A stretch of DNA of 64,000 nucleotides from Candidatus Enterousia sp. (GTDB taxonomy: Bacteria > Pseudomonadota > Alphaproteobacteria > Rs-D84). The DNA lies in the NCBI GenBank assembly GCA_045614145.1, contig JAZLCH010000006.1, positions 2,421 to 66,420 of the forward strand, read 5' to 3'. Each line of letters opens with the position of its first letter. Positions within the stretch are counted from its first letter, which is position 1. The notes beneath the pieces were generated by a model, which did not search any database, was not told the DNA's origin, and was given only the letters and a program-made list of their open reading frames with translations. This document shows, one piece after another, positions 39,286 to 51,673 of this stretch. Both the position numbers and the translations under genes were made by a program.

Positions 39286-40158
39286 TTAATAATCGTATTC
39301 GTCAACACCTGTGCCCTTGTAGGTTGAGCCCTTGTCGTTAATTGGTGTTCCGAGATAGGTACAACCAATTGTGCCCTTTAGATCCTGGGGGTTCGAAAAA
39401 GTAAAATATCCGAATTCATCTTCTACCCCTTTGGACAATGGGAATACAGTGCATGTTTGTATGCCGATCTCTCCTGTTTTAATGTCAACATAAAGACCAT
39501 TTGAAACCTGTTCAAATGCCCGGTGCGAATACGAGCCGGTATACATTCCACGTGGACACGGCCGACAAATGGGAATGATGTCTTTTTTATCAGCGCTGAG
39601 GCAACCGGCATTTGGATTGTTGGGGTATTCCCCCGTCTCGGCAGCGAGATAGTATCCACCCGAACACTGCAAATAACCAGTTGGATCGTTCTTTGCTGTT
39701 TCTAGCTGGTAACCACCATTAAGGCAGTTGCCAGCGGAAGTGGTACCAGAACCGGTGCAGCTCCAAGTACACTGTCCTGTTGATTGCTCATTGTAACCAG
39801 TTGTTCTGTGATACGTACAACTTTGGCAGTTATCCGGATCTACACCAGCGATATCAGGCATATTACAGGTATAGTTTGCAGGAGTCAACGCGTCATACCC
39901 AGAGCAAACCTCATCAGAATTAGAACAGCCCACCGATGCCGCCCAACCTGTATAACAAAGGGGGTGAAAACCTTGTTCGCCTGATTCATGCTTCACTTTT
40001 ACCATAATATTGTTTTGATTTTTTTCATTTCGGTAAAATTCTTTTCCTGCTAGATTTGTGTTTTCTGAGTCTGTTTCTGCATAAACCGTAGTATTTTTTG
40101 TAAAACATGCCAGTGTACAATAAAAACAATACAGAAAAAATCTTTGGATTGGTTTCAT
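39286..40158 (-). CDS. Secreted cysteine-rich protein with furin/TNFR-like Cys repeats
   Basis: A signal peptide is followed by more than 25 Cys in CxxC / CRPCPRGMYTG-type patterns that resemble eukaryotic cysteine-rich repeats. Confidence 0.4.
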   Translation of the reverse strand: MKPIQRFFLYCFYCTLACFTKNTTVYAETDSENTNLAGKEFYRNEKNQNNIMVKVKHESGEQGFHPLCYTGWAASVGCSNSDEVCSGYDALTPANYTCNMPDIAGVDPDNCQSCTYHRTTGYNEQSTGQCTWSCTGSGTTSAGNCLNGGYQLETAKNDPTGYLQCSGGYYLAAETGEYPNNPNAGCLSADKKDIIPICRPCPRGMYTGSYSHRAFEQVSNGLYVDIKTGEIGIQTCTVFPLSKGVEDEFGYFTFSNPQDLKGTIGCTYLGTPINDKGSTYKGTGVDEYDY

Positions 40159-43622: not shown

Positions 43623-43628
43623 AAAAAT

Positions 43629-43650
43629 CCCACCCAGAAATGGTGGGAGA
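43629..43650. terminator. Bidirectional terminator between the convergent M48 peptidase and RSH-like genes
   Basis: Hairpin tcccacc-cagaaa-tggtggga is flanked by an A-tract and a T-tract. Confidence 0.55.
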
Positions 43651-43658
43651 TGGATGGA

Positions 43659-45059
43659 TTATTTTTTGTAATAACGCTGAATTTCAGTCATCACAAAGTT
43701 AAACAGTTTGCCCGCCTGGGTCGTTTGTGGCATTGCCCAATCATGCTGCATATATGGCATTGCCGCGACCAACACAAAACGCGCCATAAAATGGAATATG
43801 TTTGCCTGTTGCACACGCGACAGTTTAATCGGCGCATTATCAATGGAAAACAATTCGTTTTCAATCGCATCGTCCAGTTTTTCGTTTATATTATCCAGAA
43901 TTTTTTGTGGATAATATAATTTGCATTCTTTTGGAAAACCTTCGAACATTGCGGTTGAGTCACCCTGGGAATACAACAGATTCCAACCGACGCGGTCAAA
44001 CAAATCTTCCAGACAGTTGCAAATCATACTGTTATATGATTTTACCCCATTTTCCATAAAGGTCGCCAGGCGCGCTTCTATATCATCTGATTTTGCACAC
44101 TTTTTCTTGCGCGCATCTTCATAAGCCAGGTGCGTTTGGCGTTCAAATTCAAAGAATGCACGAACCTGACATATAATCTCCATAGGAATAACAGTTTCAG
44201 GGTTGGGGCCAATGTTAATAACCAGTTTTGCATCACGATAATTGCGTGGATTTTGCATATTATAAAAACTGTCGCGGACTGATATGATACGATCTGGCAT
44301 CATTGCCTGAATCCGTTCAATAAATGTGCGCGCCTGGGGGATTAAATCAAACAGACACTTTACCCGCCAGACATCCTGCAGACGCATGCGCGGTTTTTCA
44401 ACCCGATCCAAGGCACGAACCAAATCAACCGCAATGTTTTCATGCCCAGAACCAATGATGGACAGCACTGTTTCCGATGGCGTTGAAATATATTTTTCAT
44501 TCAGTTTATCGCGGATCTTGGTCGCAATGGCGCGCGCGGACGCTTCGCGTTCGTGCGATGCGATTACGCGGTATACGGTTGACGCAACCTCGTCCACATA
44601 AGAGGCATAGTATTTACCAGTCATTTTATCCAGTGCGCGCCCAATTTTCTTCTGGGCCGCCACAATAACCGTGACAATGGACGATACCGCCAAGTCAATC
44701 TTGTGACCGGCAGTGCTGGTGAAAAATTGATTGCGCATCGGATCCGCATCCAAACGATGCTGCACAATATATGGCGACAGCGGATTAATATCAGAAATGC
44801 GCATAGGTTCGTCAATGGCACTGTCCGAGTCGTAATCATACTTCATAACCGCTGCCTTGGGCGCACCAAAGCATTTGCCCAGAACATAAAACACTTCACG
44901 AAACCAGTGCATACTATCCGAATACAGCAGGCGCAAATGATCAGCCGCAACTTCGTTTATACGCCCAGATTCCAAGGCCCGGTCTATGGCAATCAGATTC
45001 TTTTTGTCATTTTCTGCGGCGATGTCTTGGGCGACTGTTTCAGCACCGATATAAGACAT
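43659..45059 (-). CDS. RelA/SpoT-like (RSH) nucleotidyltransferase-domain protein, 466 aa, no HD hydrolase domain
   Basis: Central motifs are WRVKCLFDLI (compare GRVKSxxSI), DSFYNMQNPRNYRDAKLVI (compare DYIANPKPNGYRSLHLVV) and EIICQVRAFFEFERQTH (compare EVQIRTxxxHxWAExxH). Confidence 0.45.
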   Translation of the reverse strand: MSYIGAETVAQDIAAENDKKNLIAIDRALESGRINEVAADHLRLLYSDSMHWFREVFYVLGKCFGAPKAAVMKYDYDSDSAIDEPMRISDINPLSPYIVQHRLDADPMRNQFFTSTAGHKIDLAVSSIVTVIVAAQKKIGRALDKMTGKYYASYVDEVASTVYRVIASHEREASARAIATKIRDKLNEKYISTPSETVLSIIGSGHENIAVDLVRALDRVEKPRMRLQDVWRVKCLFDLIPQARTFIERIQAMMPDRIISVRDSFYNMQNPRNYRDAKLVINIGPNPETVIPMEIICQVRAFFEFERQTHLAYEDARKKKCAKSDDIEARLATFMENGVKSYNSMICNCLEDLFDRVGWNLLYSQGDSTAMFEGFPKECKLYYPQKILDNINEKLDDAIENELFSIDNAPIKLSRVQQANIFHFMARFVLVAAMPYMQHDWAMPQTTQAGKLFNFVMTEIQRYYKK

Positions 45060-45078
45060 TATTACCCCCTTTGGCTGG

Positions 45079-46554
45079 TCACTTCATTATAGGAAACAAT
45101 ATTATGTCGCGCAGTGTTGGCTGGTCAAAAACAATACTGGCCAGTCTGTCAACACCAACACCAACACCGGAAATCGGTGGGAAACCGTGTTCCATCGCAC
45201 GAACAAAGTCATTATCCGGGTTAAATGCTTCTTCGTCACCGTCGGCAATATTGCGCGCCTGTTCTTCAAACGCCGCCAATTGCTGAATTGGGTTTACAAG
45301 TTCTGAATACCCTTTGCATATTTCGGCGCCACATACCAACAACTGATACATGTCAATGCGTCGGTTGTCGGCATCGTTACGACGGGCCAATGGAACCATG
45401 TACGCTGGATAGTTGTACAAGAAAGTCGGATTGACGATATTGCCTCGAATCTTGCGCTTGTAGACATAGTCAACCAAAGTTGGAATTGATTTCAAATCTT
45501 CCAGTTCAGAATATGGGAACATGCCGTTATCAACCAGTTTTTGACGCAGGGCATCAACATCGTCAAAATCCAGAATATCACAACCAAAGAATTCGTTCAT
45601 CTTGGCCGTGTAATCAATCATTTCATAAGACGAGAAATCTAGTTTTGTACCCTGGTATTCAATCTGTAATGTACCACGACATTTCATCAATAAATCTTGG
45701 ATTAAATCCCACGTAAATTTTATATTATCATTGAAATCCCAATATGCTGCATACCATTCAACCATTGAAAATTCCTGCAGATGCATAGCATCCATGCCTT
45801 CGTTACGAAAATCCTTGGCAACTTCGTATACGCGGTCAAAACCGGCACCAATTGCCTGCTTTAAGAACAATTCTGGTGAAATACGCAACTGAAAATCTGC
45901 ATCTAGGGCATTGTGATGCGTTGTAAATGGGCGTGCCGCCGCACCAGACGCAATGTTCTGCATAATTGGTGTTTCAATTTCTAAAAATCCATGCGCATTC
46001 ATAAAATCACGCCAATATTGCATCATCTTGAAACGCCCCAGCAGCGCATTGCGTGATTCAGGATTGGAAATAATATCCAGATAACGCTGGCGATAGCGGG
46101 TTTCCATATCGGTCAGGCCGTGGTATTTTTCAGGCAGTGGACGCAAAGCCTTGGACAGGATTTCATATGCAGACACCCGAACCGTCAGTTCACCGGCGGT
46201 CGTGTGGTATAAATCACCTGTGATACCAATAAAATCCCCCAAATCAACGTTTGCCTTCATAAATTTATAGTTTTCTTCGCCCAGTTCTTCGCGTGACATA
46301 GAAAACTGGATTTCACCATTAATATCATAAATGCGACCGAACATCAGTTTGCCCAACCAACGCAACGCTGTCACACGCCCCGCCAGACGCACAGGCGTTC
46401 CATCTGACAATTCGCGAGCAGTTTCAATCGTATGCGTGCGGTCAAATTTGTCTTTCCATACAACACCATCACGGTTACGAATGTTTTCAGCCTTTTGCAG
46501 ACGTGCCGTTAATTCGTTTGTTGAAATTGTATTATTTGTTGTATTTTCTGACAT
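45079..46554 (-). CDS. lysS: Lysyl-tRNA synthetase (class II)
   Basis: An N-terminal OB fold and class II motifs FRNEG and GAGFDRVYE are present. ELTVRVSAYEILSKALRPLPEKYHGLTDMETRYRQRYLD is typical of LysS. Confidence 0.9.
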   Translation of the reverse strand: MSENTTNNTISTNELTARLQKAENIRNRDGVVWKDKFDRTHTIETARELSDGTPVRLAGRVTALRWLGKLMFGRIYDINGEIQFSMSREELGEENYKFMKANVDLGDFIGITGDLYHTTAGELTVRVSAYEILSKALRPLPEKYHGLTDMETRYRQRYLDIISNPESRNALLGRFKMMQYWRDFMNAHGFLEIETPIMQNIASGAAARPFTTHHNALDADFQLRISPELFLKQAIGAGFDRVYEVAKDFRNEGMDAMHLQEFSMVEWYAAYWDFNDNIKFTWDLIQDLLMKCRGTLQIEYQGTKLDFSSYEMIDYTAKMNEFFGCDILDFDDVDALRQKLVDNGMFPYSELEDLKSIPTLVDYVYKRKIRGNIVNPTFLYNYPAYMVPLARRNDADNRRIDMYQLLVCGAEICKGYSELVNPIQQLAAFEEQARNIADGDEEAFNPDNDFVRAMEHGFPPISGVGVGVDRLASIVFDQPTLRDIILFPIMK

Positions 46555-46771
46555 TTTTTGCCCTTTTGGTTTATATAAAAAAACAGACGCAGAAATGTGC
46601 GCCCGCAGCTGTTATTCTGTTGGTCGCACCGTACTAGTTAAAACGTTTAAATAAAATCCTCATCTGTTTTGCGCCATATATCTTTTGCATGAATTATATA
46701 TACCTTTTGCGAAAAGTAAAGTAGAAAATATAACTGTTGACAAAACACACATTACGTACTACGCTCTCCGC

Positions 46772-48209: not shown

Positions 48210-49199
48210 TTAAAACCATGTCCATGGCTGAAAAACCTTTAACAGCCCCAGCGCAGTGCGCTTGTCCGCATAGGTATGACCACAACGCGGACAGACATTA
48301 AATGGCTTTAATATTGATTTTGCCCGCTTGAACATCATAAACCATATGTACAGGCCGATTGCCCACGCCGCAACAACCAGTCCCCATGCAACATAACCGA
48401 AATATTTATCAACTGTGTTTGTGATAACTGTTATTGTGGTTACATCTGATTTTGATAAATCGTTATAGATTTTTGTTGCAACAGGCCAACTGGACGGACG
48501 CCACGGATAAACATGTTCAATACCATAATTCGTCAGCAATGTTGTCCCCAGACCACCAGATTGTTTATCCAGCGCAGTTTTTATCGCACTGTCCAGTGCG
48601 TTATCAATTTCCGTCTGGGCAACGCGTGTCAGATTTGATTTTACGGAATCTAATTTTTCATTCACCAGTTTGGCGGTGTTATCAACTTTTTCAATGGTAG
48701 AATTTGCCTGGGCAACACCTTGGTCAACAGATGCGACCGCCTTGTCTACACCGTCTGTTTTAACACCAAATTTGTTTGCCAGGCCTGTTAATTTTTTAAT
48801 ACCAGTTGTCTTTTCTGATACCTGGGCGTTTTTTTCACGGGCCGCAGCGGTTTTGTCAGTGACCCGGTCAACCGCGTCTTCGGCAATTTTTACACCGTCT
48901 ATGGCAACTGCAATCGGTTTTTCCAGATTGATAGAATCAGCAACACCGTCCAACAATGCCTCGTATTGCTTTACTATACCCTTTTGCAGGTCAAAGAACA
49001 TAGACACAACAATCGATTTCTTAATCGGGGACGAATATCTGTTTTTTACATGTAACGGGCCCCATACAACCAATGCCAACCATATGACCGTTATTATTGC
49101 AAATATGCGCTTTGTCCATGTTATGACAGACTGTTTCTTTTTAACGGTTTTTGCGCCGCCCATGTCGATTACTTCGACCTCTTTCTTTTTACGTGGCAT
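48210..49199 (-). CDS. Membrane protein with two TM segments, a coiled-coil middle and a C-terminal zinc ribbon (CPRCGHTY)
   Basis: The N-terminal TM segment is IFAIITVIWLALVVWG and the C-terminal one YVAWGLVVAAWAIGLYIWFMMF, followed by CxxC-like CPRCG. Confidence 0.4.
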   Translation of the reverse strand: MPRKKKEVEVIDMGGAKTVKKKQSVITWTKRIFAIITVIWLALVVWGPLHVKNRYSSPIKKSIVVSMFFDLQKGIVKQYEALLDGVADSINLEKPIAVAIDGVKIAEDAVDRVTDKTAAAREKNAQVSEKTTGIKKLTGLANKFGVKTDGVDKAVASVDQGVAQANSTIEKVDNTAKLVNEKLDSVKSNLTRVAQTEIDNALDSAIKTALDKQSGGLGTTLLTNYGIEHVYPWRPSSWPVATKIYNDLSKSDVTTITVITNTVDKYFGYVAWGLVVAAWAIGLYIWFMMFKRAKSILKPFNVCPRCGHTYADKRTALGLLKVFQPWTWF

Positions 49200-51088: not shown

Positions 51089-51673
51089 TTATGCTGCCTG
51101 TCGTTCATAGGCAGCGGACATAATGGCCTGATTTTGCGCGGTCTTAGCACCTTCAAGTTGTTCCAGGATTGCGCGCATTTCAGCAATTGATTGCTTCATA
51201 TTGCGTGCTATTTCTTGAACCTGTTCTGGGGTTAAATCCCGGGAAGAAATAGCCTCTTTGCTGTTGCGAACATTGTTTTTAGCGCTTGTATATTTTTCTT
51301 CCTGCGATTTACTCATTTTGCGCATGTTATTGTTAACAAACTTTTCTATTGCACGCATGGCTTCTCTGCTGTTCAAAAAATCTATTCCAAAATTGAACAT
51401 AGCTTTCTTGCCCGCTTTGGTCCCCAGGAATCGCCCAGCGACGCGCGGATTTTTCGCCAAACGCGTTATCGTAGGCATTGCTTCGGAGACAATTTTTCCT
51501 GCGCTTTTTGATGCGACAGCCTTGCTCCCCTGTTTTGCGGCAGCCTTGGCCCCTTGTTTCGCGGCAGCCTTGGCCCCTTGTTTCGCGGCGGTTTTTGCTG
51601 CCTGTTTTGCTACGATTTTTGCGCCCTGGGTGACGGCAACTCTGCCGGTGGCGACGACGACTGGTGCAACCAT
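51089..51673 (-). CDS. Lys/Ala-repeat protein (AAKQGAKA repeats) with a coiled-coil C-terminus, lying between queA and tgt
   Basis: The protein carries tandem AKQGAKAAAKQGAKAAAKQG encoded by perfect 24-bp DNA repeats. It is coupled to the queA stop. Confidence 0.45.
   Translation of the reverse strand: MVAPVVVATGRVAVTQGAKIVAKQAAKTAAKQGAKAAAKQGAKAAAKQGSKAVASKSAGKIVSEAMPTITRLAKNPRVAGRFLGTKAGKKAMFNFGIDFLNSREAMRAIEKFVNNNMRKMSKSQEEKYTSAKNNVRNSKEAISSRDLTPEQVQEIARNMKQSIAEMRAILEQLEGAKTAQNQAIMSAAYERQAA
51517..51610 (-). repeat. 24-bp in-frame tandem repeat array (cagccttggccccttgtttcgcgg, about 4 copies, 2 perfect)
   Basis: The perfect copies are at 51541-51564 and 51565-51588, with degenerate flanking copies. 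Confidence 0.75.

Follow-up and report, generated by a model that had tools for sequence, protein, structure and literature searches.

A divergent RelA/SpoT-like protein encoded downstream of lysS in Candidatus Enterousia

What is the long reading frame that follows lysS in Candidatus Enterousia? In a 64,000-nt stretch of DNA from this alphaproteobacterium (contig JAZLCH010000006.1 of assembly GCA_045614145.1, positions 2,421 to 66,420; hereafter the window), the lysine–tRNA ligase gene is followed directly, on the same strand, by an open reading frame (ORF) that we call orf466, and both ORFs stand as an initial annotation made from the sequence alone had drawn them. That annotation took the 466-aa product, ORF466, for a stand-alone RelA/SpoT-like (RSH) synthetase, possibly a toxin, a secreted (p)ppApp synthetase or a tRNA pyrophosphokinase. 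We found that ORF466 belongs to a known superfamily as a previously unannotated, deeply divergent branch with a new architecture and an altered donor site, and that this branch has become fixed throughout an order-level lineage of uncultured gut bacteria. The two genes are as follows.

43659..45059, minus strand: orf466, the ORF directly downstream of lysS, encoding a divergent protein of 466 aa (plus stop codon) with a very probable RSH fold
45079..46554, minus strand: lysS, encoding a class II lysine–tRNA ligase of 491 aa and first of the two-gene unit (NF001756, TIGR00499, PF00152, PF01336)

Evidence for an RSH synthetase fold

Sequence searches with ORF466 against the Protein Data Bank (PDB) returned only noise, and BLASTP and phmmer found nothing when it was compared with 14 genuine RSH synthetase domains. 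These domains were taken from annotated records and comprise those of E. coli RelA and SpoT, small alarmone synthetases (SAS) from Bacillus, Rhodococcus, Listeria and a phage, and four long RSHs (from Rickettsia, Azospirillum, Listeria and Parabacteroides). A hidden Markov model (HMM) built from the 14 domains scored ORF466 homologs at only 4–7 bits. In two relatives the homologous segment gave matches to the RSH family PF04607 below its cut-off of 27 bits, with E values of 0.031 (P0126) and 0.61 (P0158).

Predicted structure placed ORF466 among RSH enzymes. The top 43 Foldseek matches to the PDB were all RSH chains, so the structure prediction that the initial annotation had proposed as a check revealed no unrelated fold. 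A replicate model of P0152, a member of a distant clade of the family predicted from its own 42-sequence alignment (predicted local distance difference test [pLDDT] 91.2, predicted template modelling score 0.88), is independent of the ORF466 model and returned the same exclusive set of RSH neighbours.

Profile-profile comparison gave the same answer. When an 18-sequence family alignment was compared with the 14 RSH domains using hhalign, the score was 44.5 (E 4e-5, probability 70%), as against 12.8 ± 2.3 for 100 column-shuffled controls (maximum 22.8) and 15.3 for a reversed profile. Leaving out an insert at aa 150-221 raised the probability to 89% (E 2.3e-6, score 46.5), and the distant clade alone scored 37.7 against RSH domains versus 14.9 ± 2.4 for its shuffles. 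Because structure search, replicate model and profile-profile comparison agree, despite a failed PF04607 test that we weigh below, we conclude that ORF466 very probably has the RSH synthetase fold.

Active-site residues and domain architecture

The residue register was set by the profile-profile alignment, and invariance was counted over 87 sequences from three clades. Residues K137, R141, K145, D229, R232, Y274, K278, E294, H310, Y313 and R317 are invariant across this set and fall within the following motif equivalents, all placed by hhalign.

44625..44651, minus strand: motif 1 equivalent, K137-K-I-G-R141-A-L-D-K145 (canonical GRxK-x3-SI-x2-K, donor triphosphate), with K137, R141 and K145 invariant
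44358..44375, minus strand: motif 2 equivalent, D229-V-W-R232-V-K234 (canonical D-x-x-G-x-R, Mg2+-binding Asp), with D229 and R232 invariant
44226..44273, minus strand: motif 3 equivalent, DSFYNMQNPRNY274RDAK278, from D263 onward (canonical kDYIxxPKxNGYxSlH)
44160..44180, minus strand: motif 4 equivalent, E294-I-I-C-Q-V-R300 (canonical E-v-Q-i-R-T), with E294 invariant
44109..44132, minus strand: motif 5 equivalent, H310-L-A-Y313-E-D-A-R317 (canonical eH..yYK), with H310, Y313 and R317 invariant

Of the three RSH motifs named in the initial annotation, the second (DSFYNMQNPRNYRDAK, compared with DYIxNPKxNGYxSlH) and the third (EIICQVR...TH, compared with EvQiRT...eH) are upheld by the alignment, but the first was read in the wrong register: WRVKCLFD, taken for GRVK, is actually the D-x-x-G-x-R strand that carries D229, and the equivalent of GRxK..SIxxK is K137-x3-R141-x3-K145. 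Once the insert is removed, VAAQK137-KIG-R141-ALD-K145 aligns with GRvK-s..SI..K, such that K137 and K145 match the two lysines and R141 stands in the place of the Ser, with the columns here aligned at low confidence for ORF466 itself. The distant clade yields that placement unedited, as P-[KR]-M-K-S-x-x-R-A-I-E-K. The canonical motif 1 Arg is A135 in the Enterousia clade and K or R in 34 of the 42 distant-clade sequences. A different placement of motif 1, at G205-H-E-K208, was rejected; it scored 43.1-43.9 versus 46.5 and lies in a segment that the distant clade lacks. The reading of WRVK as GRVK falls on the same ground.

Roles for these positions have been assigned in the toxin FaRel2: triphosphate binding (R64, K66, S70, K74 and R77), Mg2+ coordination (D90), accommodation of the acceptor (Y128 of the G-loop) and recognition of the donor adenine (E145 and Q147) (PMC11782079; for the G-loop Tyr, also bioRxiv 10.64898/2026.04.06.716658). 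Invariant residues of ORF466 align with the FaRel2 triphosphate helix, Mg Asp, G-loop Tyr and catalytic Glu. On beta2, D229 aligns with the Mg2+ Asp (FaRel2 D90), and the Gly and Arg of the motif become R232, which is invariant in both clades, and residue 234, which is K in the Enterousia clade and T in the distant clade. The Tyr of NGYxS that stacks on the acceptor base (FaRel2 Y128, CapRel Y155) aligns with Y274, in a motif where K278 is likewise invariant and N270 and R/K272 are conserved. For the E-x-Q of beta5 (FaRel2 E145 and Q147), the Glu is the invariant E294, and the Gln is I296 in the Enterousia clade and Q in 42 of 42 distant-clade sequences, whose motif 4 reads E-[IV]-Q-L-K. Judged from these aligned residues, the putative donor pocket is remodelled, not degraded, and ORF466 is likely to be catalytically competent. 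Calibrated profile-profile homology and the invariance of the mapped catalytic residues bear out the original description of a stand-alone RSH synthetase-type domain, and the Pfam scan found no HD domain in ORF466, as that description had it, and no TGS or ACT domain.

The synthetase-like core makes up less than half of the protein, which is organised as follows.

44679..45059, minus strand: N-terminal extension, aa 1-127, comprising a three-helix bundle (aa 6-64) and then beta-strands and the loop HRLDADPMRNQFF, from model secondary structure
44100..44678, minus strand: RSH synthetase-like catalytic core, aa 128-320, isoelectric point (pI) 9.5
44397..44612, minus strand: helical insert, aa 150-221 (72 aa), between motif 1 and the Mg-site strand, from the alignment; shorter in the distant clade
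43662..44099, minus strand: acidic helical C-terminal region, aa 321-466, pI 5.15, ending in an invariant QRYYKK, from model secondary structure

What had been described as an N-terminal extension of about 200 aa is instead an extension of about 127 aa plus the 72-aa helical insert. The N-terminal region, with its three-helix bundle, is the part best conserved between clades (N21, I25, I34 and Y46 are invariant), and neither it nor the insert nor the C-terminal region gave a specific structural or profile match. Both the N- and C-terminal parts are acidic, in contrast to the basic core.

Three short segments in and around these regions are also conserved. The loop HRLDADPMRNQFF (aa 101-113, 44721..44759) is invariant and modelled with pLDDT <50, and the C-terminal QRYYKK occupies aa 461-466 (43662..43679). 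Directly after the triphosphate helix lies an invariant G-K-Y-Y-x-x-Y (aa 148-154, 44598..44618), which holds a YxxY pattern like the one by which antitoxins block the donor site of toxic SAS (toxSAS).

Conservation, locus and genomic neighbourhood

A word-indexed search recovered 607 homologs of ORF466. The best 120 of the 607 share 71-97% identity with it, are nearly all 463-476 aa long, and are all recorded as 'hypothetical protein' from metagenome-assembled genomes (MAGs) of Alphaproteobacteria with no Pfam domain on record. Scanning one genome per species, we found relatives in at least 291 species genomes, assigned to Candidatus Enterousia or to uncultured gut Alphaproteobacteria and including a closed chromosome of 958,618 bp. 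When HMMER was run exhaustively over 1.84 billion representative proteins, it produced only 48 matches, mostly fragments, indicating that the family is narrow. It consists of the Enterousia clade, a few intermediates (36-58% identity) and the distant clade (~19-21% identity), whose members likewise come from Alphaproteobacteria MAGs; homology between the Enterousia and distant clades was detected by hhalign at a probability of 99.3% (E 1e-20 over 271 columns).

Comparison with orthologs gave a ratio of nonsynonymous to synonymous substitution rates (dN/dS) of 0.03 at dS 0.4-0.7, and of 0.03-0.07 overall. We conclude that orf466 is a real, conserved chromosomal gene under strong purifying selection, and that it is part of the core genome that Candidatus Enterousia and its uncultured alphaproteobacterial relatives of the order Rs-D84 inherit vertically. 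Enterousia, in that order, has genomes of <1 Mb, and its lifestyle is inferred to be that of an obligate symbiont or parasite (PMC12306168). No relatives were found in 2.9 million viral contigs scanned for the Enterousia and distant clades, tblastn with P0152 had no match in phage and plasmid records, and PADLOC and PHROGs scans of ORF466 gave no match at E<=10. One MAG, JAZSNY01, holds two lysS-orf466 loci (L009 and L082) with ORF466 copies that share 86% and 72% identity with that of the window, reflecting either a mixed bin or a real duplication.

The identity of LysS is secure from matches to NF001756 (518 bits, cut-off 468) and TIGR00499 (464 bits), together with PF00152 and PF01336. Around the gene pair we identified the following signals.

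45060..45078, minus strand: lysS-orf466 spacer of 19 nt with a Shine-Dalgarno sequence, AAGGGGG, read directly from the sequence
43628..43648, minus strand: hairpin resembling an intrinsic terminator, TCCCACC-loop-GGTGGGA and then T7, 10 nt past the orf466 stop codon, from a sequence scan
46693..46720, minus strand: promoter-like site TTTACT-16-TATAAT upstream of lysS, a candidate operon promoter from a consensus scan only

The spacer reads CCAGCCAAAGGGGGTAATA and places the Shine-Dalgarno sequence 7 nt 5' of the orf466 ATG; the gap is likewise 19 nt at loci L001 and L002, and no convincing terminator was found between the two genes. A short spacer with its own Shine-Dalgarno sequence, a terminator only after orf466 and a promoter-like site before lysS together amount to a bicistron arrangement, in line with the earlier suggestion that the two genes are probably co-transcribed.

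Two further signals lie on the same strand. Within the 3' end of lysS, a promoter-like site TTGACC-16-CATAAT (45101..45128, 10 of 12 consensus matches), ~40-70 nt upstream of the orf466 start, is a candidate internal orf466 promoter by consensus match only. In the lysS leader, between the upstream promoter-like site and the lysS ATG (46554), a GC-rich hairpin with a T-run (46583..46606) could act as a transcription attenuator; it matches no Rfam family.

The window flanks carry unrelated housekeeping genes: those for RecG and an M48/TPR peptidase are convergent with orf466, a GT2 glycosyltransferase gene is divergent from lysS, and tRNA-Gly and Tgt lie farther out. Three more ORFs of the window lack a Pfam family, all on the minus strand (48210..49199, 329 aa; 39286..40158, 290 aa; 51089..51673, 194 aa), and the position of the 329-aa ORF beside tRNA-Gly and Tgt is kept in related genomes.

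Does the association with lysS inform function? The gene lies immediately upstream in 82 of 83 Enterousia-clade loci. At the exception, L005 (JAZSDC010000034.1, 5798-5977), lysS is cut to its first 26 and last 27 codons and orf466 is intact and 97% identical. Downstream genes vary, with the M48 peptidase in the window and CSD, LemA and PHP at L001. Relatives at 36-44% identity have ruvB in the upstream position instead of lysS, and in the distant clade the family gene is divergent from an adjoining YbaK-type tRNA_edit gene on two contigs and elsewhere follows alr. The loci inspected are chromosomal, housekeeping contexts in every clade, with no conserved small partner gene, no integrase and no defence neighbourhood. 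Orthologs are thus not always beside lysS, as the initial annotation had asked: because ruvB replaces it in the intermediates and other genes do so in the distant clade, the linkage is a lineage synteny of the Enterousia clade and no family-wide trait. It carries little functional weight, since a genome of ~0.9 Mb is packed with translation genes, and the proposal that it hints at a tRNA-directed activity loses its footing; the practical lesson is that adjacency to lysS is no evidence for such a function.

Several details of these loci deserve record. At L005 the lysS remnant spans the stretch matching the internal promoter-like site, a GT2-like 414-aa gene lies beyond it, and the loss of lysS is either an artefact of assembly or a real deletion, in which case another part of the genome would have to carry lysS. 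Between ruvB and the relative P0126 (36% identity) lies a 117-aa ORF with a PF18451 (CdiA_C) match (L098:7379-7732). Genes of 156-157 aa with PF04073 (YbaK/ProX-type aminoacyl-tRNA editing) divergently adjoin the distant-clade gene at L100:6370-6843, L102:6096-6566 and L103:3028-3498, contigs whose remaining neighbours differ. Across L001-L083, identity to the LysS of the window is bimodal (74-77% or 85-98%) and uncorrelated with that of the adjacent ORF466 (89% for ORF466 and 77% for LysS at L008; 75% and 97% at L025), a sequence pattern suggesting that lysS has undergone recombination or allelic replacement between Enterousia species.

Proposed function and comparison with known systems

Our favoured reading, to which we give roughly even confidence as a whole, is that ORF466 is a deeply divergent stand-alone RSH-fold pyrophosphokinase without a hydrolase domain, probably an alarmone synthetase; alarmone-type nucleotide synthesis as its role, argued by analogy, has at best an even chance. 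The protein looks like a housekeeping enzyme, not a toxin, because relatives occur in 291 species genomes, synteny is kept at 82 of 83 loci, dN/dS is 0.03-0.07, and there is no partner gene or mobile context. Absence from viral contigs and a dN/dS of ~0.03 also argue against the toxin or secreted effector that had first been considered.

Catalytic activity, donor, acceptor and physiological role we infer by analogy with solved RSH enzymes. ORF466 would act as an Mg2+-dependent nucleotide pyrophosphokinase in which the basic strand-helix of K137, R141 and K145, together with R232 and K234, holds the triphosphate of a nucleoside triphosphate donor, most likely ATP, and in which Mg2+ and this donor are set in place by D229 and E294. 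Y274 would stack against the acceptor purine, whose ribose 3'-OH would take the beta,gamma-pyrophosphate; the most likely product would be (p)ppGpp or (p)ppApp, a nucleotide of the alarmone type. Regulation is the probable task of the N-terminal bundle, the 72-aa insert and the acidic C-terminal domain, and co-transcription with lysS in Enterousia would tie orf466 expression to a translation gene without thereby defining the substrate.

Several observations weigh against this reading. ORF466 matched nothing in Pfam, PF04607 included, or in NCBIfam even at E<=10, so that the family match by which the initial annotation proposed to check itself did not materialise. The Foldseek statistics are modest (best E 2.8e-3, target-normalised template modelling score ~0.45); the structures are predictions, and the residue mapping comes from a profile alignment rather than from residue-level structural superposition. 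The donor site departs from the canon at A135, R232, K234 (T in the distant clade) and I296, and the donor or the chemistry may accordingly differ. Nor was a canonical RSH or HD hydrolase found by phmmer with full-length SpoT and RelA in 1.08 Mb of sequence, which covers the window and the loci and not whole genomes. Finally, the preference for an alarmone over tRNA is indirect, drawing on three points: orf466 is a core gene, it lacks an antitoxin, and both terminal parts of its product are acidic. A weak match to the SpoT HD domain in the 1.08 Mb proved to be DnaK.

Two readings would place ORF466 outside the synthetases altogether or make it a remnant of one, and both are effectively excluded. 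That the RSH resemblance arose by chance in an unrelated fold would fit the lack of any match in Pfam, NCBIfam or PDB sequences and the reliance on predicted structures, yet two independent models share the same exclusive RSH neighbours, the shuffled controls stay far below the profile-profile score, and the invariant residues coincide with catalytic positions, which makes this reading very improbable. A lineage-typical fragment of a split SpoT/Rel gene, like RickRel/RickSpo of Rickettsiales, would suit a reduced-genome alphaproteobacterial host and a protein without HD, TGS and ACT domains, and was the alternative raised in the initial annotation. BLASTP and phmmer, however, detect nothing between ORF466 and E. 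coli RelA or SpoT, the long RSHs of Azospirillum, Listeria and Parabacteroides or a Rickettsia plasmid RSH, although these long RSHs readily find one another; the RSH HMM gives ORF466 homologs its 4-7 bits; and the protein has conserved N- and C-terminal domains of its own. Since length is fixed at 463-476 aa among the best 120 of the 607 homologs and dN/dS is ~0.03, this is no decaying fragment, and we regard such an origin as barely credible.

Readings that keep the fold and change the chemistry carry more weight, though each is unlikely. ORF466 might be a nucleotidyl- or phosphotransferase acting on another substrate, a nucleotide-binding regulator or a scaffold, a minority prospect that gains from the remodelled donor site (A135, R232, K234/T, I296), from the failure of every HMM to recognise the protein, and from the ~60% of it that lies outside the canonical domain. 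A pseudoenzyme would, however, be expected to lose the RSH catalytic residues, and here the Mg Asp, catalytic Glu, G-loop Tyr and triphosphate lysines are invariant across clades only ~19% identical; of the RSH-specific motifs, NP[KR]xxY is kept, as is E-x-Q with its Gln in the distant clade (I296 in the Enterousia clade), and the GS...DxD signature typical of other nucleotidyltransferases is missing. We consider it unlikely, too, that ORF466 works as a CapRel/FaRel2-type pyrophosphokinase of the tRNA 3'-CCA end, either self-inhibited by its own extensions as a fused toxin-antitoxin or serving as a regulated, non-lethal translation brake, in which case the lysS operon would reflect a tRNA-directed role. 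The basic catalytic core (pI 9.5), the aminoacyl-tRNA-related neighbours in two clades (lysS and the divergent YbaK-type tRNA_edit gene) and the large extensions, which could autoinhibit as in CapRel (PMC11782079), are consistent with this. On the other side, lysS linkage is clade-specific and the intermediates follow ruvB; adjacency is expected by chance in reduced genomes dense in translation genes; both terminal parts are acidic; by structural score CapRel has no advantage over RelP or RelQ; and a core gene that is retained universally and held by strong purifying selection, with no PADLOC match and no viral or mobile context, is no patchy defence gene.

It is also conceivable, but rather unlikely, that the family is the sole RSH-type enzyme of Rs-D84, a housekeeping one with a substrate or product new for RSH proteins. 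Examples would be regulated, non-lethal tRNA 3'-end pyrophosphorylation (perhaps of tRNA-Lys, given the lysS operon) or a different nucleotide messenger made through the remodelled donor site (A135, R232, K234, I296); if so, an obligate gut symbiont would have a stringent-response substitute invisible to current RSH classifiers. Returning to the alarmone synthetase that we favour, an active ORF466 would offer the first way into the control of translation or of nucleotide second messengers in this widespread, uncultured group of gut bacteria with genomes of <1 Mb, and new modes of regulating or re-targeting RSH chemistry could come to light from the remodelled donor site and the large extra domains.

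Among characterised systems, CapRel(SJ46) and FaRel2 (PDB 7ZTB), toxSAS that pyrophosphorylate tRNA, differ from ORF466 in several respects. Where toxSAS have an adjacent antitoxin, orf466 has lysS upstream and a terminator downstream (a fused cryptic antitoxin is possible), and the protein has no recognisable pseudo-zinc-finger domain. Where toxSAS are patchy and associated with mobile elements or defence islands, orf466 is a lineage core gene under strong purifying selection, with relatives in 291 species genomes and conserved synteny, and lies outside any prophage or defence context. Tas1 and exported SAS (PDB 6OX6, 8VX3), secreted (p)ppApp synthetases, contrast with ORF466 in that it has neither a secretion-associated domain nor an adjoining immunity gene; no hydrophobic N-terminus or segment was found in it (maximum hydropathy 1.47). 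PANGU type I (the GRel toxSAS Pag1B; bioRxiv 10.64898/2026.04.06.716658) resembles ORF466 in joining a toxSYNTH-type domain to an acidic C-terminal domain, but it forms a defence operon of two genes, one for a nucleoid-associated protein, and ORF466 has no such neighbour and another domain order. With the split RickRel/RickSpo RSHs and the long RSHs (Rel/SpoT/RelA), ORF466 shares a reduced-genome alphaproteobacterial host and a synthetase-type core.

The small alarmone synthetases RelQ and RelP (PDB 5DEC, 6FGK, 6EWZ) are only 9-17% identical to ORF466, a relation that PF04607 and BLAST miss. ORF466 is more than twice their length owing to its 127-aa N-terminal extension, 72-aa insert and acidic C-terminal domain of ~145 aa, and their GRxK, DxxGxR and ExQxR become AQK, DxxRxK and ExIxQ. 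The census that defined 30 SAS subfamilies was HMM-based (PMC7229694) and would miss the ORF466 family despite its kept fold and catalytic residues, suggesting that the RSH superfamily reaches beyond detection by sequence classifiers.

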